Shown here: positions 26,088 to 50,237 of the stretch, piece after piece
Numbering within the stretch: the first letter of the stretch is position 1
Layout: each line of letters starts with the position of its first letter
Origin: Naegleria gruberi
Taxonomy: Eukaryota
DNA: 64,000 nucleotides
Assembly: GCA_000004985.1 (NCBI GenBank)
Contig: GG738899.1
Strand: one strand, 5' to 3'
Position numbers and translations under genes: made by a program
The notes under the pieces: generated by a model
Database searches by the model: none
What the model saw: the letters and a program-made list of their open reading frames with translations, nothing else
Told to the model about the DNA's origin: nothing

Positions 26088-29000
26088 ATGACAGAAAAGT
26101 GTAAAACCTATGAGAGAGATGGTCAATGTAATAACGAAAATTGTACACTGATTCATCAGACGTGTCCAAAATTTAGATCACGAGAAGGATGCTCCGAAGG
26201 TTCTTCCTGTCCATTGATTCACAATAGAAAGGTCTTTCAGAAAGATTGCCCTCGTGGTGAGTCATGTAATCAAGGATTGGCATGTAAATATTTCCATCGG
26301 AGAAGTGTTAATTTCACACAACAACAACAAAAACCTCCACTGCAACAACAACATTCTAATCATCAATTTAGGGAGAGAACCAAAGCAAATGAAAGTTCAT
26401 CAAATTTCAATGAAAAGAGAAAGTTTGAAAGAGATTATGATAGACGATCAAATAGAAAATTGGATCAAGTAGAAATTACCAGTAGCAGTAGTAATAGTAG
26501 TAATAGTACTAATTTCGGAAACGTTGATACAGAGGGAGATTATATTATGAAAGAAAATTCCTCTACATCTTTTAATGTGGAAGAAGAAATTGAAATTGTG
26601 GAGGATGTGAAGAAAATTGATTTGCTTCCGAACTCTACTACTAATAACCTATTTGTGTTGAAGGTGGATAAAAGAGATATTTCCGATGAATCTGCAAAGC
26701 TGCTAGGAGATGAAAAATCCATGATACTAATGGTGGAACAAGTAAATGCAGAGTTTGATAAAAAGAAGGAAGAATTGACAAGAAAATTATTAGATATGGT
26801 TGATGATAGAGAAGAACTTGCCACAGAAGGACCAATTATTAGAAATGAACGTAAACTATTGGAGAAACAACAAGCAAATTTCCAGAGACAAGTTCAGCAA
26901 ATTTTTTCACTCAAAGACCAGTATCCACTCTCTACAATTTTACATGCACTCTATAGAGAATGCTGCCGAGGAATGAAGAGCCTTCCTTTGTATGCATTTA
27001 GATCTGATATTATTGCAAGTTTACAAAATAATAATGTCATTATTTGTATTGGTGAAACAGGCTCTGGTAAATCTACACAAATTCCTCAATACATTCTCGA
27101 GGAAGGATATGGAAGATTTGGTAAAGTAGTGTGTACAGAACCTAGAGCAGTTGCTGCAATGTCTCTTACAAAGAGAATTTCTCAGGAAATGTCCATTAAG
27201 GAAAATAGTCTAGTGAGCCATAATTTATATGGAAAGGTTAATAACTGGTCCGATTTACTATTCATGACTGATAGAAAGTTATTGAATGAATTTCAAAATG
27301 ATGCTCTACTCTCAAAATATTCAGTTATCATTGTCGATGAAGCTCACGAAAGAAATCTATGTTCCGACATTCTAATTTCACTATTGAAGGAATGTGTAAT
27401 CAAGAGAAGTCAATCAACAACTCTAAATCCACTCAAATTAATTATAACTTCAGCAACTATTGATGAAAATCTATTTTCAACATTCTTTAATAATTGTCCA
27501 GTTATTAAAGCTCCTGGAAGAATGTATCCAGTGGATGTTTATTGGACTAAACAAAGAAAAGAAGATTACGAACAAGCAGCTGTTCAAAAAGTGTTAGAGA
27601 TTATTTCAAACAACAAATTGGAAGGTGACATTTTGGTATTTCTAAGCTCACCAGACGAAATTGATAGATGTATTAAGAAATTAGAATTTCACTCAAGGGA
27701 AAACAGAGCTCTTTCTCGCTGTTTGATTCTTCCACTCCATGGAGCACTCACGCCTGAAGAACAAGAAAGAGTATTCGAAAGAGTAAATTCTAGAAGAATA
27801 ATCTTTTCAACACGTATTGCTGAAAACTCTGTCACTATTGATGGTGTGAAAATCATTGTGGACACTGGTGTTTCACGAGAAAAATTCTACGATCAACAGA
27901 GAAACATGTCTATTCTCAAAGTGAATAATATTAGTCAAAGTTCTGCCATTCAGAGAAAGGGAAGAGCTGGTAGAACTTCATCAGGTGTATGTTTCAGATT
28001 ATTTTCCGAACAAGACTTCTCCTCAATGAGTGTAAATCCAACTCCAGAAATTTTGAATTCTAATTTAGGATTGACTTTATTGAGATTATTTTCAGCTGGT
28101 GTGAAAAATGTATTGGAATTTGATCTAATTGAAAAACCTAATCTGGAGGATATGAAGAAATCTCTCAAGAATTTAACCGACTTGCAATTTGTGGATGAGA
28201 AGCAAAACATTACACAAATGGGTAAGCAAGCTTCCAAGATGGAAATTGAACCTTCTCTTGCAAGAATGATAATTGAGGGAATTAATTTAGGAATTGGAGA
28301 TGAAATTATTCAACTAGTGTCCATTATGTCATTCTCCAACATGATCTATGCAAAATCTAAGTCTACAGATTATTTAGAAAAAGATATTATGAAAGTCTCA
28401 ACTTCAAAGGAAGGTGGTGATCTGATAACACTTCTTCACATCTTCCAAGGATTTCTTCAAGCAAAAGATAAGCGAAGATATGCAAAAGATGGAAATTTCA
28501 GTCTGAAAACATTGATCCAAGCAGAAGAAACCATGACAGATATTAGGAAGAGATTGAATTTTGAAAGATCTAGCAATAGTGAATCAAAAACAGTTGAATC
28601 CATTCAAGAAATAATTACCAGATGTGTTTGTTGTAGCATGTTTGATAATTTTGCCTATTTTCATGGCATTATTAATGGAAAGAGAGTTTACAAAATTCTC
28701 TCATCAAATATGGAAGCTTTTATTCATGGTTCATCATTTTCTAATTATTCAAGCGAGCCAATTGACTATGTAATATATGGAGAATTAGTCAAGACGGAGA
28801 AACTATTTATGAAAAATGTAACTCCTATTTCTTTAGAGTCAATCAAACCATTCATTACTTTCAATCAATCTCTAAATGTTGTAAAGAAGAAAGTGATATA
28901 TCCACTCACCAGAGGAATATTCGATTGTTTAAATGCCAATAACGGAGCATTGTTAGAATATTTAAGATTGAATATTGGATCAATTGTTGAAATGGACCCA

Positions 29001-31100
29001 GATAGAAACGAACTCGTTGTATATTTATCTGAAGGAGATCAAGTCGAAACAATCCTCAAATATGTTTATGATACAGCTGTTCAAAGATCAAATAATGAAT
29101 TCCTCGAACATCAAGTTGATTCAAAAGTAAGAGCCCTGATTGGAAGAGGAATGCAAGTTGTCAAATTACTTTTTCCAGGAGAGTTTGTAAAATGCAATAT
29201 TCTTAATATCCCAAATATGGATTATAATCACATGAGGGAAGTATTCGAGATGCATAATCTTCCAATACTCGATTGCAAACTATTCTTTGAATTGCCATCC
29301 AATAGGTATGGGACTGTAATTTTTGATTCTCCACAAACATCCAAGAAAGCTCGTGAATTATTTTCTGATTGTCAAGAGTTTCGTATAACCACAAGTGATT
29401 CAACAATAGTTCCAGAAGAAAAAGAAATGAAAAACTATCCACTCAACATTTATTTCTACTCTGAGCACGATGGTAAATGTTTCATCTATTCAGATAACGC
29501 CAATGCCCTAAACATTATTCAATCTCAGTACCTTTATGGTCAAAAGATGTTCCGTAATATTGAAAAGAAAAACCTAAAAATTGCAAACTTATCCTTCACA
29601 CTTGATGAGCACAGAATTAGAGATTTCATTCCAAGAGAACTTCATAACGATATCAGGATAGTTATGAATAGAGATAGACTTGGTAAGGAACAAGAAAATC
29701 AATTTGTTAAAAAGATGGTCAACACTATTAGACCAATGATGGAACTTTTTGGAGAATTGGAAATGTTTGAGTATGTTCCAACCAAAGACCTTGTAGGACA
29801 GTACAAGATATTGGCCAAGTTTACCAACTTGGAAAGTACAATGACAGCAATGAAAAGTTTAAATGGAGCTAGCGTCGGTGACAAGTTTATTTGGGTGGAA
29901 CCTGAATTTACGGACATCATACCATTCCCACTTGATTTGGACACTGATAATTTATTTAGAGAAGAGTTAAGGAAAATGATGAAGGAAATTTTTTCTGTTT
30001 ATGGATGCAGGTCTGGAATGTTTGAAATGAAGAATGGAAGACAAAAGGCTTTGAAAGTTAGAGCAAATTCAGAAGAAGGACTTACTAGAGCAATGGCTAT
30101 CGCTCACAAATATCTAAAGCCATATGTTCTAAAATTGGGAGTATTCGATTTCTCTATTGCATTCAAGAAAAAGTTTAGAATTCTTGAATTGACCAAAAAC
30201 TTCAAAGCTTATATTGACTTTGATATTAAGAATAATAATGTCAATATTTATCAACTCGGAATTAATCAAATGAAAGATATTGTCACTACTATTCTACAAG
30301 AAATTAGAAATTCCAATAAGGACATTATCAAGTTAACTCAATTGAAACCAATTATTGGAAATCAAGGAAAAGTTTTAAAATCTCTGCAAGAAAAATATGG
30401 AGGAAGAATTGATTTTGATTACAAACAAAAAATTATTTCTATTAACAGTTCAGATCAAGAGGAAATCAATAATTTTAAACAGGAAATTAGAAATATATTA
30501 GAAAGCCACCAAACTACCAACGAAGAAATATCTCCAGAAGACTGTCCAATCTGTTATGGACCAAAAGAGAATCCAGTTCTCTTATCGTGTGGCCATTCAC
30601 TTTGTAGAGATTGTTTTATATGTCAACTTGATCAAATGACATTTAATTGTTGTGAATGTGACAGTTTGCTAACCATTCCAGAAATCAATCTTTCTCAGGA
30701 TTTGAATTTAATTGAAAAACAAGCTCAGTATGCCGTTGAAAAATATCTTGAAAGACATCCAAATGATTTTAAACACTGTTCATCAGCTCATTGTTCTGGA
30801 ATTGTCTGCATTGATCAAAGTCAAGTAGCTCACTGTCAATCCTGTAACAAAACTTATTGTATCAAGTGTAATGAACCTCCACACCCTGGATTGGATTGTT
30901 CTAATGAGGAAGAAGCTCTAATCATTGAGTGGAAGAAGGCCAACACAAAACCATGTCCAAAATGTAAAAATAATATTGAGAAGAATGGAGGATGCAATCA
31001 CATAACTTGCTATTATTGTGGAGCTCACTTTTGTTGGTTGTGTGGATTTTTGGCCAATGGGGCTGTTGGTGTTTATACACATTTACAAACGTGTAGATAA
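26088..31100 (+). CDS. CCCH zinc-finger – DEAH-box RNA helicase – RBR (RING1-IBR-RING2) E3 ubiquitin-ligase fusion protein (plant DEAH11/12-like architecture)
   Basis: 1670-aa ORF. N-terminal C-x-C-x-H fingers. Helicase motifs 'GETGSGKSTQIPQ', 'VIIVDEAHERN', 'STRIAENSVTIDGV', 'QRKGRAGR'. C-terminal 'CPICYG..CGHSLCRDCF' (RING1), IBR, and 'CPKCKNNIEKNGGCNHITCYYCGAHFCWLCG' (RING2 catalytic Cys). Confidence 0.85.
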   Translation: MTEKCKTYERDGQCNNENCTLIHQTCPKFRSREGCSEGSSCPLIHNRKVFQKDCPRGESCNQGLACKYFHRRSVNFTQQQQKPPLQQQHSNHQFRERTKANESSSNFNEKRKFERDYDRRSNRKLDQVEITSSSSNSSNSTNFGNVDTEGDYIMKENSSTSFNVEEEIEIVEDVKKIDLLPNSTTNNLFVLKVDKRDISDESAKLLGDEKSMILMVEQVNAEFDKKKEELTRKLLDMVDDREELATEGPIIRNERKLLEKQQANFQRQVQQIFSLKDQYPLSTILHALYRECCRGMKSLPLYAFRSDIIASLQNNNVIICIGETGSGKSTQIPQYILEEGYGRFGKVVCTEPRAVAAMSLTKRISQEMSIKENSLVSHNLYGKVNNWSDLLFMTDRKLLNEFQNDALLSKYSVIIVDEAHERNLCSDILISLLKECVIKRSQSTTLNPLKLIITSATIDENLFSTFFNNCPVIKAPGRMYPVDVYWTKQRKEDYEQAAVQKVLEIISNNKLEGDILVFLSSPDEIDRCIKKLEFHSRENRALSRCLILPLHGALTPEEQERVFERVNSRRIIFSTRIAENSVTIDGVKIIVDTGVSREKFYDQQRNMSILKVNNISQSSAIQRKGRAGRTSSGVCFRLFSEQDFSSMSVNPTPEILNSNLGLTLLRLFSAGVKNVLEFDLIEKPNLEDMKKSLKNLTDLQFVDEKQNITQMGKQASKMEIEPSLARMIIEGINLGIGDEIIQLVSIMSFSNMIYAKSKSTDYLEKDIMKVSTSKEGGDLITLLHIFQGFLQAKDKRRYAKDGNFSLKTLIQAEETMTDIRKRLNFERSSNSESKTVESIQEIITRCVCCSMFDNFAYFHGIINGKRVYKILSSNMEAFIHGSSFSNYSSEPIDYVIYGELVKTEKLFMKNVTPISLESIKPFITFNQSLNVVKKKVIYPLTRGIFDCLNANNGALLEYLRLNIGSIVEMDPDRNELVVYLSEGDQVETILKYVYDTAVQRSNNEFLEHQVDSKVRALIGRGMQVVKLLFPGEFVKCNILNIPNMDYNHMREVFEMHNLPILDCKLFFELPSNRYGTVIFDSPQTSKKARELFSDCQEFRITTSDSTIVPEEKEMKNYPLNIYFYSEHDGKCFIYSDNANALNIIQSQYLYGQKMFRNIEKKNLKIANLSFTLDEHRIRDFIPRELHNDIRIVMNRDRLGKEQENQFVKKMVNTIRPMMELFGELEMFEYVPTKDLVGQYKILAKFTNLESTMTAMKSLNGASVGDKFIWVEPEFTDIIPFPLDLDTDNLFREELRKMMKEIFSVYGCRSGMFEMKNGRQKALKVRANSEEGLTRAMAIAHKYLKPYVLKLGVFDFSIAFKKKFRILELTKNFKAYIDFDIKNNNVNIYQLGINQMKDIVTTILQEIRNSNKDIIKLTQLKPIIGNQGKVLKSLQEKYGGRIDFDYKQKIISINSSDQEEINNFKQEIRNILESHQTTNEEISPEDCPICYGPKENPVLLSCGHSLCRDCFICQLDQMTFNCCECDSLLTIPEINLSQDLNLIEKQAQYAVEKYLERHPNDFKHCSSAHCSGIVCIDQSQVAHCQSCNKTYCIKCNEPPHPGLDCSNEEEALIIEWKKANTKPCPKCKNNIEKNGGCNHITCYYCGAHFCWLCGFLANGAVGVYTHLQTCR

Positions 31101-38094: not shown

Positions 38095-38412
<318 letters not shown>

Positions 38413-38772
38413 ATTGCTTTGCAAATTAGTAATTAATAATTATTGGATGATGAAAATCATCTAGCAAACATTTTCCCAACAAACAACTCGTCAAGAAATT
38501 GACACCCTAGGCTCTTGTACAAATAAATTATTAAAAATCAATAATTATTGAATATAATTTTAATTAAATTGTTTTGTTGGTGCGTATAATTCCAGCATAA
38601 TGAACTATTTAGTTTGTAGATAAGAGTGATATTAACAGAGATGGAAGAACAATTTACAAGAGATTTTATCACGCTCAATCTAATAATAAGATCAAGTTCT
38701 TTCATGCAAATCTCTTCATAAGAACAATTGGAAAATCAAAACATCACAGAAAACAATAAAAAGAAAATACAA

Positions 38773-40420
38773 ATGCTACCATCATCCGATACTAACAAAC
38801 CAAACAATACTTGTTACGAAATTGCAGGTGTTGGCTTTGCTGTTGCCCCCAAGACAGATTGCCCACACTTTGACTCTGAAGAGCACTTTGCTGTCCCATG
38901 GAATGATAGAAAGGCCATCAAGGAACTCTTCACAAAGGATGCTCCGTGTAGACATTGCCACTCCACAGCAGAGAATTGGTTCTGTCTCAAGTGCCAAGAT
39001 GTTTGTTGCTCTCGTTACCAGAAGAGCCACATGTTGCATCACTATGAAAAGACTGGTCATGCTTTGGTGTTGAGTTTAGCCGATCATTCATTGTATTGCT
39101 ATGAATGTGATGCCTATGTAGAGAACAAGACTTTAACAAGATTGCTCTTGAGAGAGTTACATCATGTAAAGTTTGGAGAATATCCAGGTGCTAATGGAGC
39201 CTCAGTAGAGATGGAAGAAGCCATTGAAAAGTTGAGAAATGTCTCTGAAGCCATTGAAGAGGAGAAGAAGAAGGTTGATTCGGAGAAGGAAAAAGCCTTT
39301 GAAATTCTAGCTGAAAAGATTCAAAGTGCCTCTGATGAATCAATTATTGTATTGACTGGAGCTGGATTGTCCACTAGGTAGGTTTATTCATTATTATTAT
39401 CCTTATTATTGATTGTTAATATTATTATCATCATCATTATACTTGTTATAATATTCAATGATTCAATTGTAATATTTAAATATTATTAATGATAATAATT
39501 GGATAGTGCTGGAATTCCTGATTTTAGAACTCCTGGAACTGGATTGTATGATAATTTACAAAAGTATAATTTGCCTCATCCAACAGCCATTTTCGAGTTG
39601 AAATATCTTCCAACTAATCCTCATCCATTCTTCCATTTGAGTAGAGATTTCATTTCTTCTGGATATAAACCAACTAAAGCTCACTACTTTATCAAATTGT
39701 TGGAAGAAAAGAACAAGTTGAAGAGATTATATACTCAAAATATTGATGGTTTGGAAGCCAAGTCAGGTAGGTTTGTCAATATTACAGAATATTTATTGTG
39801 ACAATTTTCAATCATTTAAAGGAATTACAAAGGAGCACTTGGTAAATTGTCACGGAATGTACGATATTGGTCACTGTATTGAATGTTCAAAGGAATATTC
39901 ATTGTCTGAAATTGTAAAAAAGATGGGAACTGATGAAGAAGTCCAAATTCCAAAGTGTGACAAGTGTGGACATATTGTCAAACCAGATATTGTCTTGTTC
40001 GGAGAGTCATTACCTAACAAATACGTAGATTGTTGCAAATCAGATTTGCTTCGTTCCAAGGATTGTGAAGTCTTCATTGTCATTGGTACTTCCTTGTCAG
40101 TCTAGTAAGTAATTGAATTATTTTTTTATTGACCTAATAATTGTAAAAATAGTCCTGTTGCTGGTTTACCAGAATATGCTCCAGAAGGATCAACACGTGC
40201 TCTTCTTAATCGTGAAAAATGTGGACCTTTCAGTAAGGTGAAAGGAAATGTTGCTGAAGTTGGAGATGATTCAGATTATTTGGATTTGTTCCTTGGTGGA
40301 GAGGATTCATCCATTGATGAATGTGTTGAAAAATTATGTAAATTATTAGGATGGGAAGCTGAATTGGAGGAATTATATGTTAAAGGACCAGTCGATCTCG
40401 TAGAATTGAGTAAGAAATAA
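38773..40420 (+). CDS. sirtuin (Sir2-family NAD-dependent deacetylase) with N-terminal UBP-type zinc finger; 4 exons
   Basis: Exons 38773-39377, 39507-39766, 39822-40104 and 40153-40420 (donors GTAGGT/GTAGGT/GTAAGT; acceptors ATAG/AAAG/ATAG; frames verified). ZnF-UBP: 'CPHF...[48 protein letters not shown]'. Sir2 motifs '[21 protein letters not shown]', '[10 protein letters not shown]', '[14 protein letters not shown]...[17 protein letters not shown]', '[14 protein letters not shown]'. Confidence 0.85.
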
Positions 40421-40629: not shown

Positions 40630-41439
40630 ATGGTGTTTCGTCTCTTCTCAAAGATTCGAACAGTTGATGCTAATGATGACCTTTCAACTGTTTCAGAACA
40701 AGAATCTCACGTTCCAGTTCCAGTGGTAGTTTCTGTTAAAGTTTCACCATTAAAAATTACACAACATTCTCTCAAAATATTAGAAAAAGTAAATAGGGAT
40801 GAATTATTAATTGTTGGATGTTTTCTAAATACTTCCGAGCTAGCAAATCTTGCTTCATGTAATCAACAATTACTGGAATTTTTCTTTAATTTGACAATTG
40901 ACAAGGTCAATTTAATAGCAAACAGGAAAAAAGAATTCTCAACTGTGAACATGGATTCAAGAATTGTTTCAATCAAGGATGTTTACCAAGAGAATGATGA
41001 ATTATTCTCAACAACTCAAACAATAATTTGGAAACCACTTGTTCTACATTATTTTCCAAGTTATTCGAAATCTCTGAATGTGAAAAATTGGATGCACATA
41101 TTAAGGAGAAGATTCACCCACCTTCAGATACACATGCCAAGATCCAAAAACCAAAACCAAATTCAAATAATTGGCGGTACTGATAAATATCAAAGGGAAT
41201 TCGTTGAAGGTTGCGAATGGGAATACGAATGTCCACTCAAAATCACCTCAATGACTTTCATTTCCGAGGAAATGGTGTTTTGCAATGTTTGTAAGGAGAA
41301 TATTTACAAAGTTCATAATGAAACTGATTTGAACTATCACACCGAACAAGGACATTGTGTAATTCTAACCGAAAAAAAACGACTTAGAATTGGAAAGACG
41401 TATAATCCTAATTATCATAAACTTCCTGCTGTTCGTTAA
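40630..41439 (+). CDS. hypothetical protein (possible F-box-like region, C-terminal Cys/His cluster)
   Basis: 269-aa ORF with an A-rich start context. No recognisable catalytic domain. Confidence 0.45.
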   Translation: MVFRLFSKIRTVDANDDLSTVSEQESHVPVPVVVSVKVSPLKITQHSLKILEKVNRDELLIVGCFLNTSELANLASCNQQLLEFFFNLTIDKVNLIANRKKEFSTVNMDSRIVSIKDVYQENDELFSTTQTIIWKPLVLHYFPSYSKSLNVKNWMHILRRRFTHLQIHMPRSKNQNQIQIIGGTDKYQREFVEGCEWEYECPLKITSMTFISEEMVFCNVCKENIYKVHNETDLNYHTEQGHCVILTEKKRLRIGKTYNPNYHKLPAVR

Positions 41440-41748: not shown

Positions 41749-41867
41749 GGCTACGGCCATATCACGATTCATGCACCTCATCCCGTCCGATTTGAGAAGT
41801 TAAGCATCGTCGAGCCACATCAGTACTGAGGTTGGAGACAACTTGGGAACCTGTGGTGCTGTAGTCT
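41749..41867 (+). rRNA. 5S ribosomal RNA gene (copy A)
   Basis: GGCTACGGCCATA...CCGTCCGATTTGAGAAGTTAAGC...GGTTGGAGACAACTTGGGAACCTGTGGTGCTGTAGTC aligns position by position with eukaryotic 5S rRNA. Helix I pairs 5' GGCTACGGC with 3' GCTGTAGTC. A T6 run follows immediately. Confidence 0.9.
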
Positions 41868-41873: not shown

Positions 41874-41971
41874 TTTTTTCTCTATTTCTATTTTTCTGTG
41901 ATATAAAGCACCTTAATTAATATCAGTTGTGGACTAGATCTATTAGCAACTTATTTTCTTCTTGAATAACT

Positions 41972-42043
41972 TCCCGTGTAGTCCAATGGCTAGGATACCT
42001 GGCTTTCACCCAGGAGGTCCGGGTTCAATTCCCGGCATGGGAG
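41972..42043 (+). tRNA. tRNA-Glu (anticodon TTC), copy 1
   Basis: TCCCGTGTAGTCCAATGGCTAGGATACCTGGCTTTCACCCAGGAGGTCCGGGTTCAATTCCCGGCATGGGAG: 7-bp acceptor stem, anticodon loop CTTTCAC, T-arm GGTTCAATTCC. Confidence 0.9.
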
Positions 42044-42117
42044 GATAATTTTGCAAAAGATAATTTATTTGGTAACCTTTTATTAATGGAAAGGGTTATT
42101 GAAATGGAACAGTTGAC

Positions 42118-46019: not shown

Positions 46020-46100
46020 TGCAGAAGGTGGGATTTGAACCCACGAAGCTTGCGCAGTAGAACTTGAGTCTACCCCCTTTGACCACTCGGGAACCCCTGC
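46020..46100 (-). tRNA. tRNA-Leu (anticodon CAA), class II with long variable arm
   Basis: Reverse complement GCAGGGGTTCCCGAGTGGTCAAAGGGGGTAGACTCAAGTTCTACTGCGCAAGCTTCGTGGGTTCAAATCCCACCTTCTGCA. D-loop GAGTGGTCAAA, anticodon loop CTCAAGT, T-arm GTGGGTTCAAATCCCAC. The acceptor stem has two G-U pairs. Confidence 0.7.
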
Positions 46101-47303
46101 TTCATATAATCTTATAAACCTGGTTGTTCACTTTGAATATACCAACATTCTGTATTTTCAAGTTAGCCCATTGCTCACCTTAGCATCTTATTTTCATTAT
46201 CTTCCACAATATTCTTTATCATCTTTATTCGCCTTGAAACCAATCCTTAATTTATTCTCCCAGCTTATTCAACTATTTTCTTGAATTGAATTTCCAATTT
46301 TCCCAATTTTTTAACCATAACTTTTCCTCGCAACATTTCACACTTTCACAACCAATATAACATCATTGAGGATGCAAGATTGAAAAAACCATTGACTGTA
46401 CTTCTACAGGATCTTTTCTGTAGGAATACATAAACTCGACTTTTTTGAGTCAATCTGACCTTTGAGGTTAACCAAGATGAAGACTCTGTAGTCACATATC
46501 TTGAGCATGATATCGAACTGGAAACATGCTTCGTTGTAGGTTTCCTCGTTCATAGATGATTGCTGCATTCCTTACCAGCCATGGTTTGTGAATGGGGGAT
46601 TTGTGAACATGCAGATTGGTACCTTAAACTTTTTATCAATTAAAAGAAAAATATTACAACTATGCCCGAGAGCTGCCAATTAAACTCTATAACAAAACTT
46701 TCCTTTTATTATTAATCAACATGGCCCGTCGTATCTTCATTGCACTGTATTGGAGTTAGGGTTTTATTTTGTCTTGGAAAGCAAATATTTGAAGACTCAA
46801 ATTCGAAATTTGAAGGTTTATTGATCAACCACAAGTTTCTCTTTCTAAATAGATAAAATTCAAAGGTGATAAATATATGGTCACGTTGCAAGTTCTTCTA
46901 AACAATAACTTACTGAACCAACAATCAATAGATTCGTTGCCTTCACTGTTCATACAGTCAAAGACTGTAGCGGGATTGTCGCCATATTCCTGGCAGGCTT
47001 CCCGTCTAATTTACCAATTGAACAATATCACAACATATTCCCTTTTACTGTATTCCTGTAATAAGGGCAGTACATTGATGTAAAAGCTTTCTTAAAAGTT
47101 ATCAGGTTTCTCCTGTTGATTATTGTTTGATAAGAAATAATTACCATTAAGGCAAATTCATTTAAAATTACAATCCATTAGTTCCTGACAAATAACTATG
47201 CATGAATTTGTGACTTATGGCCAAACTGTAGGATAAAATCATTTTGTTAAAAAAAATGAAACATTTGGTGCAGATTTATATTGCAGAAATTAGGTTAATT
47301 GAT

Positions 47304-47421
47304 GGCTACGGCCATATCACGATGAATGCACCTCATCCCGTCCGATTTGAGAAGTTAAGCATCGTCGAGCCACATCAGTACTGAGGTTGGAGACAACTTG
47401 GGAACCTGTGGTGCTGTAGTC
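47304..47421 (+). rRNA. 5S ribosomal RNA gene (copy B)
   Basis: Identical to copy A apart from ~3 substitutions (cacgatGAatgc vs cacgatTCatgc). Followed by T7. Confidence 0.9.
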
Positions 47422-47428
47422 TTTTTTT
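47422..47428 (+). terminator. Pol III oligo-T terminator of 5S copy B
   Basis: TTTTTTT directly after the 5S 3' end. Confidence 0.7.
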
Positions 47429-50165: not shown

Positions 50166-50237
50166 TCCCGTGTAGTCCAATGGCTAGGATACCTGGCTTT
50201 CACCCAGGAGGTCCGGGTTCAATTCCCGGCATGGGAG
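50166..50237 (+). tRNA. tRNA-Glu (anticodon TTC), copy 2
   Basis: 72/72 identical to copy 1. Shared immediate flanks: 'gaataac' upstream and 'gataattttgc.aagataatt' downstream. Confidence 0.9.

Follow-up and report, generated by a model that had tools for sequence, protein, structure and literature searches.

Structure of the gene

The stretch of DNA analysed here, 64,000 nucleotides of the Naegleria gruberi genome (contig GG738899.1; hereafter the window, whose position numbers are used throughout), carries on its plus strand, between 38773 and 40420, a four-exon gene whose 471-amino-acid (aa) product combines an N-terminal zinc finger of the UBP type (ZnF-UBP) with the catalytic core of a sirtuin, a deacylase dependent on nicotinamide adenine dinucleotide (NAD). 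The parts of the gene are as follows.

38719-38721, plus strand: in-frame upstream stop codon TAA, seen in the translation of 38653-38802, with no ATG between it and 38773
38773-39377, plus strand: exon 1, encoding aa 1-201 plus 2 nt; N-terminal beta-hairpin, ZnF-UBP, helical linker and first sirtuin strand with the GAGLST NAD motif
38860-39180, plus strand: ZnF-UBP domain (aa 30-136), placed by Pfam, HDAC6 matches, residue mapping and fold comparison
39205-39327, plus strand: acidic, lysine-rich linker (aa 145-185), a helix in the AlphaFold2 (AF2) model, running into the region aligned to the N-terminal helix of SIRT2
39378-39506, plus strand: intron 1, 129 nt, GTAGGT...AG, phase 2
39507-39766, plus strand: exon 2; GIPDFR cofactor loop, helical module and QNID motif
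39767-39821, plus strand: intron 2, 55 nt, GTAGGT...AG, phase 1
39822-40104, plus strand: exon 3; catalytic His299 (codon 39851-39853), Zn-ribbon C307, C310, C334 and C337, GTSL motif
40105-40152, plus strand: intron 3, 48 nt, GTAAGT...AG, phase 2
40153-40420, plus strand: exon 4; end of the Rossmann fold, SIRT2-like C-terminal helix, TAA stop at 40418-40420

Joined together, the exons yield a coding sequence of 1416 nt that is in frame and closed by a single terminal TAA, and its N-terminus is not open-ended, because an in-frame TAA precedes the first ATG at 38773. An earlier note on this DNA had proposed three short introns with GTA(A/G)GT donors, and its coordinates proved exact to the base. 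All three splice junctions fall within ungapped conserved blocks when the product is aligned with its N. fowleri ortholog, to which it has 64 % identity across aa 10-470.

The finger and the sirtuin are parts of one N. gruberi gene. The finger, the linker and the first sirtuin strand with its GAGLST motif share a single uninterrupted open reading frame (ORF) in exon 1, with the codon of G196 at 39358, and intron 1 interrupts the sirtuin domain, not the boundary between finger and sirtuin. Since finger and GAGLST lie in the same exon 1 ORF, the fusion is independent of splicing. On this point the earlier note was right about the in-frame fused product but not about how it comes together, as the domains are joined within exon 1, through the linker, the first strand and the NAD motif, rather than by the splicing of a finger exon to a sirtuin core. 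Retention of intron 1 would bring an in-frame TAG (39379-39381) into the message and yield a 202-aa finger-only product ending right after GAGLST. Furthermore, the ortholog from Willaertia magna (P0003) is encoded by one uninterrupted ORF of 1398 nt that translates exactly to P0003, and a tblastn comparison with its locus returned a single high-scoring segment pair covering query aa 20-471; both domains are also carried by complete Trinity transcriptome ORFs of other protists.

The locus itself is nothing new, as the gene, its exact product and the domain pair are already public and the idea of the fusion was published in 2011. The spliced product is identical, in all 471 residues, to XP_002672211.1 (EFC39467.1; UniProt D2VUK6, UniRef100_D2VUK6), which is publicly named 'silent information regulator family protein [Naegleria gruberi]', the zinc finger going unmentioned. 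The gene thus comes from a heterolobosean and not from a dictyostelid, although a Dictyostelium protein, Sir2A, is a member of the same group of fused sirtuins. A second public record, XP_002668581.1, is a 'partial' protein of 269 aa from a 12-kb scaffold and comprises exons 2-4 only. We considered, from a match to a 269-aa 'partial' sequence (P0002), that the N. gruberi annotation might be without exon 1, and rejected this reading, as the 90 % cluster contains the full 471-aa XP_002672211.1.

A zinc finger of the HDAC6 subtype

The finger is a complete three-zinc ZnF-UBP of the HDAC6 subtype. The Pfam domain zf-UBP (PF02148) scores 66.2 bits at aa 59-120 (cutoff 22.7; E 3.2e-18), covering profile positions 1-62 of 63, and the 12 Cys/His zinc ligands are all present (C30, H32, C59, C62, C71, C74, C79, H86, H90, H96, C109 and C112), so that the complete module read into exon 1 by the earlier note stands. 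These ligands align to the ligand positions of HDAC6, and across the 48 family members aligned each of them shows either no variation or conservation of at least 90 %.

Among solved structures, the best sequence matches of the N-terminal 154 residues are the ZnF-UBP domains of HDAC6 (zebrafish 5g0f, 5e-21; human, 1e-17 to 1e-18), whereas the fingers of ubiquitin-specific proteases score far lower (USP49 1e-13, USP16 1e-6, Ubp8 1e-5, USP33/20 1e-4). Predicted structure gives the same picture: the AF2 model of exon 1 (mean predicted local distance difference test, pLDDT, 84.6) matches full-length HDAC6 ZnF-UBP chains in Foldseek with a target-normalised template modelling (TM) score of 0.83-0.91 and a root-mean-square deviation (rmsd) of 1.6-2.2 Å, lies on the HDAC6-ubiquitin complex 3phd with an rmsd of 1.7 Å, and ranks HDAC6 first, USP49 next and USP5 as much weaker. 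The analogy to HDAC6 drawn in the earlier note is therefore well placed, as the closest solved relatives of the finger, by sequence and by predicted fold, are HDAC6 fingers (PDB 3c5k, 3gv4, 3phd and 5g0f; human and zebrafish) and not those of the USPs. About half of some 80 aligned residues are identical between the two, as counted on printed alignments, and the 12 zinc ligands and the diglycine pocket are common to both. In human HDAC6 numbering, anchored on the printed sequence alignment, the pocket residues correspond as follows.

HDAC6 W1143: W69 in N. gruberi
HDAC6 R1155: R81 in N. gruberi
HDAC6 Y1156: Y82 in N. gruberi
HDAC6 D1178: D104 in N. gruberi
HDAC6 W1182: Y108 in N. gruberi
HDAC6 Y1184: Y110 in N. 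gruberi
HDAC6 Y1189: Y115 in N. gruberi

In HDAC6, R1155 and Y1156 close over the ubiquitin diglycine, and an R1155A/Y1184A double mutant remains folded while its ubiquitin binding is abolished (PMC3268394). Across 72 fused sirtuins the pocket is kept nearly throughout, with Asp at the D1178 equivalent in all 72, Tyr at the Y1189 equivalent in 71 and Arg at the R1155 equivalent in 69; at other positions, Trp or Tyr is found in 70/72, and Tyr in 63/72 plus Phe in 5. The alignment of 48 family sequences agrees with this count.

The likeness to HDAC6 ends with the finger. In HDAC6 it lies C-terminal to two zinc-dependent class IIb deacetylase domains, whereas in Naegleria it lies N-terminal to an NAD-dependent sirtuin, and Hist_deacetyl (PF00850) is absent from the Naegleria protein in the Pfam search down to E 0.1. 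As the catalytic parts are unrelated, we regard the resemblance as a functional analogy with a shared accessory domain and not as membership of the HDAC6 family.

A SIRT2-like catalytic core

The second domain is a class I, SIRT2-like sirtuin, whose NAD-binding, catalytic and Zn-ribbon residues are intact by alignment. Pfam SIR2 (PF02146) matches aa 196-384 with 187.1 bits (cutoff 24; E 3.8e-55) over the whole profile (positions 1-180 of 180). The domain search proposed in the earlier note thus called both families full-length, and chance matches are ruled out at these scores. When solved structures are ranked by sequence, human SIRT2 comes first (5e-72, aa 149-458), followed by SIRT3 (2e-59), yeast Hst2 (2e-58) and SIRT1 (3e-40), while bacterial and archaeal Sir2 structures match at 1e-24 to 1e-34.

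The sirtuin motifs are G196-A197-G198-x-S200, G204-I-P-D-F-R209, Q279-N-I-D282 and H299-G300, together with the Zn-ribbon cysteines C307, C310, C334 and C337, which agrees with the class I/SIRT2-like core, complete with NAD-binding motifs, catalytic His and Zn-ribbon cysteines, that had been read from the sequence before. Within the alignment of 48 sequences, G196, A197, G198, S200, G204, P206, D207, F208, R209, Q279, N280 and D282 are invariant, as are H299, G300, C307, C310, C334 and C337, and I205 and I281 are at least 90 % conserved; the NAD, catalytic and Zn-ribbon residues all align to human SIRT2. A C-terminal LLGW..EL helix is also common to human SIRT2 and the Naegleria protein. Nevertheless, unlike the latter, neither the named animal SIRT2 proteins among the matches nor the solved yeast Hst2 have a ZnF-UBP.

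We file the core as class I and SIRT2-like by best match, and not as strict class Ib, because PVA and Cys-HG replace PFA and Ala-HG, which are the class Ib sub-motifs of Slade et al. (PMC3191509) and are found in most relatives.

A model of the full-length N. fowleri ortholog (pLDDT 83.4) has SIRT2 as its best fold match (TM 0.85, about 45 % identity), so that fold and sequence rankings agree on SIRT2 as the closest sirtuin. Both this model and that of N. gruberi exon 1 predict a helix of about 40 residues as the linker between finger and core.

Relatives with experimental data

Two named proteins share this domain order. Thd14 of Tetrahymena thermophila, like the Naegleria protein, has an N-terminal UBP-type finger whose nearest counterpart is in HDAC6, and after it a class I sirtuin core (PMC3191509). 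Among our homologs it is probably P0095, as judged by the species, the length of 471 aa, an Asp at the position of HDAC6 H1160 (11/12 ligands) and the fact that only one Tetrahymena sirtuin carries a UBP-type finger (PMC3191509). Aligned with the Naegleria protein, P0095 shows 36 % identity over 97 % of its length (E 1.4e-72). Of the 12 Cys/His residues that Slade et al. count as zinc ligands for this finger type, Thd14 has 11 and the Naegleria protein has all 12.

The two also differ in how they are known, Thd14 being backed by cDNA, deacetylase activity and localisation, and the Naegleria protein being known here from sequence and models. Slade et al. (2011, PMC3191509) verified Thd14 with sequenced cDNA and an immunoblot, an HA-Thd14 immunoprecipitate showed histone deacetylase activity, and the finger was found most similar to the PAZ/ZnF-UBP of HDAC6, with all residues needed for ubiquitin binding kept (PMC3191509). 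The protein was seen in nucleoli and mitochondria, in a nuclear aggregate that forms on starvation, and in the parental macronucleus as this degrades. A ubiquitin link as in HDAC6 was already proposed there for Thd14, the function of the finger being left to later study (PMC3191509).

The second protein is Sir2A of Dictyostelium discoideum (DDB_G0283917, Q54QE6; P0265), in which the domain order is as in Naegleria and the linker, of low complexity and made of Thr, Ser and Glu, is much longer than that of Naegleria. Over the core, a close relative of Sir2A, P0054, shares 43 % identity with the Naegleria protein. The published cloning primers for Sir2A encode MYAVNPI... and ...NQIVKN, exactly the N- and C-termini of P0265, and tagged Sir2A was distributed across the whole cell according to the Sir2D paper, where the finger is unmentioned.

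Spread and history of the fused proteins

The Naegleria protein is a member of a widespread and conserved eukaryotic family that includes Thd14 and Sir2A. To follow the finger through the family, we took the 120 best homologs and the query (121 sequences) and labelled fingers with a hidden Markov model built from the finger alignment. It was found in 84 of the 121 sequences, at the N-terminus in 79 and at the C-terminus in 5, one of which has two copies. Carriers include N. fowleri, N. lovaniensis (P0274), Willaertia, Acrasis and Andalucia; the amoebozoan Dictyostelium with other dictyostelids, Pelomyxa and Planoprotostelium; and Tetrahymena, Paramecium, an ochromonad, Galdieria and several chytrids. 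Thus, fused proteins occur in Discoba, Amoebozoa, SAR (ciliates and stramenopiles), red algae and chytrid fungi. The 37 sequences without a finger are mostly animal SIRT2 and metagenomic sequences, together with a small number of heterolobosean paralogs.

In a bootstrapped neighbour-joining tree, which is unrooted, has no outgroup and is weakly supported at its deep nodes, 98 % of replicates unite the fused proteins of Naegleria and Willaertia with P0006, P0008 and P0011, which are Naegleria paralogs without a finger; this suggests that the gene was duplicated inside the lineage and the domain subsequently lost. A grouping of all Heterolobosea reached 18 %. The named animal SIRT2 set is never an exact clade, as other sequences fall inside it, and animal SIRT2 adjoins fused amoebozoan and chytrid proteins. 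We claim no rooted history from a tree of this kind.

One candidate for a domain-losing ortholog, the N. lovaniensis protein P0004 (396 aa, no finger), was rejected, since the true ortholog of that species, P0274 (500 aa), keeps the finger and P0004 is a paralog. Finger coding is absent within 5 kb on either side of P0004 (PYSW02000028.1, locus L001, 5001-6340), whose N-terminus is a Ser/Lys-rich tail of low complexity.

In a minority of SIRT2-like proteins the ZnF-UBP is C-terminal, as it is in HDAC6 (P0012 with two copies, P0018, P0019, P0032, P0058, P0151 and P0260). The N-termini of P0018 and P0019 resemble, by eye, those of arthropod SIRT2, and the tree places both proteins next to the animal SIRT2 group. 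These C-terminal fingers suggest that the fusion arose more than once.

Searching with the finger alone widened the comparison. A word-indexed search returned a single match, and an exhaustive HMMER search, used in its place, returned 1644 proteins at E<=1e-3. Among the 150 best finger matches, 144 proteins were newly retrieved and scanned with Pfam: SIR2 was called in 29, Hist_deacetyl in 16 and a USP catalytic domain in 0/144. On these counts, the fingers linked to sirtuins and those linked to HDAC6 look like one subfamily. Other fusion partners in the same 144 proteins were an ADP-ribosylglycohydrolase (1), a GGACT/AIG2-like cyclotransferase (2), RING plus ZZ (3) and a deaminase (1).

A broader scenario can be put forward tentatively, with the odds somewhat against it: the ZnF-UBP-SIRT2 fusion would be the ancestral eukaryotic form of SIRT2, lost in animals, Dikarya and plants, and one 'deacetylase-type' ZnF-UBP subfamily would have moved between sirtuins and HDAC6. 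The wide taxonomic spread, the position of animal SIRT2 in the tree and the partner counts (SIR2, Hist_deacetyl, no USP) are consistent with it. If it were true, the sensing of free ubiquitin tails would have been coupled to lysine deacetylation since early in eukaryote evolution.

Neighbouring genes

Genes in the window around the sirtuin encode a RhoGAP, histone H4, an F-box-like ORF, a protein like elongation factor 2, actin, a leucine-rich-repeat protein, a kinase, an adenylate/guanylate cyclase and a DUF4116 protein, a gene content in keeping with a nuclear chromosome of Naegleria. The intronless histone H4 gene (38101-38412, plus strand) precedes the sirtuin, encoded on the same strand, by 360 nt, and the H4 protein ends in ...YGFGY, the usual ending of histone H4 being ...YGFGG. 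Directly downstream, a 269-aa ORF (40630-41439, plus strand) has, by eye, an F-box-like N-terminus and a CxxC...H..GH pattern at its C-terminus; it gave no Pfam match even at E 5.

Further downstream follows a loose cluster of small-RNA genes (41749-41867, 41971-42044, 46020-46100, 46392-46620, 47304-47422 and 50166-50237), interspersed with protein-coding genes and made up of two 5S rRNA genes (100-105 bits), two tRNA-Glu(TTC), one tRNA-Leu(CAA) and a U3 snoRNA (76.7 bits). Elsewhere in the window, a 1670-aa ORF (26088-31100, plus strand) encodes a DEAH-type helicase (DEAD, Helicase_C, HA2 and OB_NTP_bind, with a weak KH match) that ends in C-terminal IBR domains, so that a helicase is combined with a ubiquitin-ligase module of the RBR type.

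What the finger may do for the sirtuin

We favour, at a probability of roughly 70 %, a reading in which the 471-aa protein is a two-domain enzyme whose finger would bind free ubiquitin tails and thereby target or gate the NAD-dependent deacylase. By analogy with the fingers of HDAC6 and USP5, the finger would bind unanchored ubiquitin, or ubiquitin chains, by the free C-terminal tail (...RLRGG); this binding would bring the deacylase to ubiquitin-rich sites, or gate its activity there, and proteins near such sites would lose acetyl or longer acyl groups from lysine. Candidate substrates such as histones, tubulin or degradation-bound proteins are speculative and suggested only by analogy with Thd14, SIRT2 and HDAC6. 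The main argument that the finger probably still reads a free -GG terminus is the conservation of the pocket residues over such large evolutionary distances.

Several points weigh against this reading. The function of the Naegleria protein is read from sequence and predicted structure, and its gene model from genomic sequence. The ZnF-UBP fold is by itself no proof of ubiquitin binding, since some domains of this type (Ubp8, USP39/Sad1) do not bind ubiquitin. One residue of the pocket, W1182 of HDAC6, has become Tyr (Y108) in Naegleria, a conservative change; USP5 also has Tyr at this position. The full-length N. fowleri model has a predicted TM score of 0.65 and does not fix the orientation of the finger relative to the sirtuin. 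Finally, the core departs from the class Ib sub-motifs, with SVYPVAG (PVA) and VNCHG (Cys-HG) standing where the family consensus has PFA and AHG.

If such doubts were decisive, the finger would be a ZnF-UBP fold that does not read ubiquitin, recognising instead another ligand (the C-terminus of another protein, a ubiquitin-like protein or a histone tail) or serving as a structural or docking module as in Ubp8 and USP39. The altered W1182 position would fit this alternative, and so would the Thd14 sites in nucleoli, mitochondria and the degrading macronucleus, which have no obvious fit to HDAC6 biology; Slade et al. deferred the question (PMC3191509), and among the open-access papers searched we found none that measures ubiquitin binding by any sirtuin-linked finger. 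On the other hand, the Arg and the Tyr removed in the binding-null double mutant of HDAC6 are both present, as are all the other pocket residues, and they hardly vary among lineages that represent at least five eukaryotic supergroups, a pattern that selection on a diglycine pocket would produce. The closest fold matches, moreover, include HDAC6 in complex with ubiquitin (3phd). We therefore consider a finger that ignores ubiquitin unlikely.

Somewhat less probable again is that the finger acts as an allosteric switch and not as a targeting device, so that free ubiquitin tails would turn the deacylase on or off and the enzyme would report the size of the unanchored ubiquitin pool. Such a switch could be served by the long helix that is confidently predicted to join the domains in one polypeptide and to run into the N-terminal helix of the sirtuin, and the existence of the fusion in both orders (79 N-terminal and 5 C-terminal among 121) argues for functional coupling over a fixed geometry. 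However, the two orders fit simple tethering equally well.

Separate expression of finger and sirtuin, whether from an internal promoter or because intron 1 is retained (giving the 202-aa protein that ends at TAG 39379), is very improbable, for although a retained intron 1 would stop translation at once and N. gruberi does have the finger-less paralogs P0006 and P0008, the finger and the first sirtuin motif lie together in a single exon and ORF, a sirtuin that began beyond intron 1 would be without the GAGxS NAD loop, and the Willaertia ortholog is intronless.

Implications

Beyond this locus, the analysis makes a modest but real point, namely that a conserved and widespread family of sirtuins carries what, from its residues, appears to be a competent ubiquitin-tail sensor. 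Naegleria, Dictyostelium and Tetrahymena are tractable organisms in which to learn whether NAD-dependent deacylation is directed or gated by unanchored ubiquitin.

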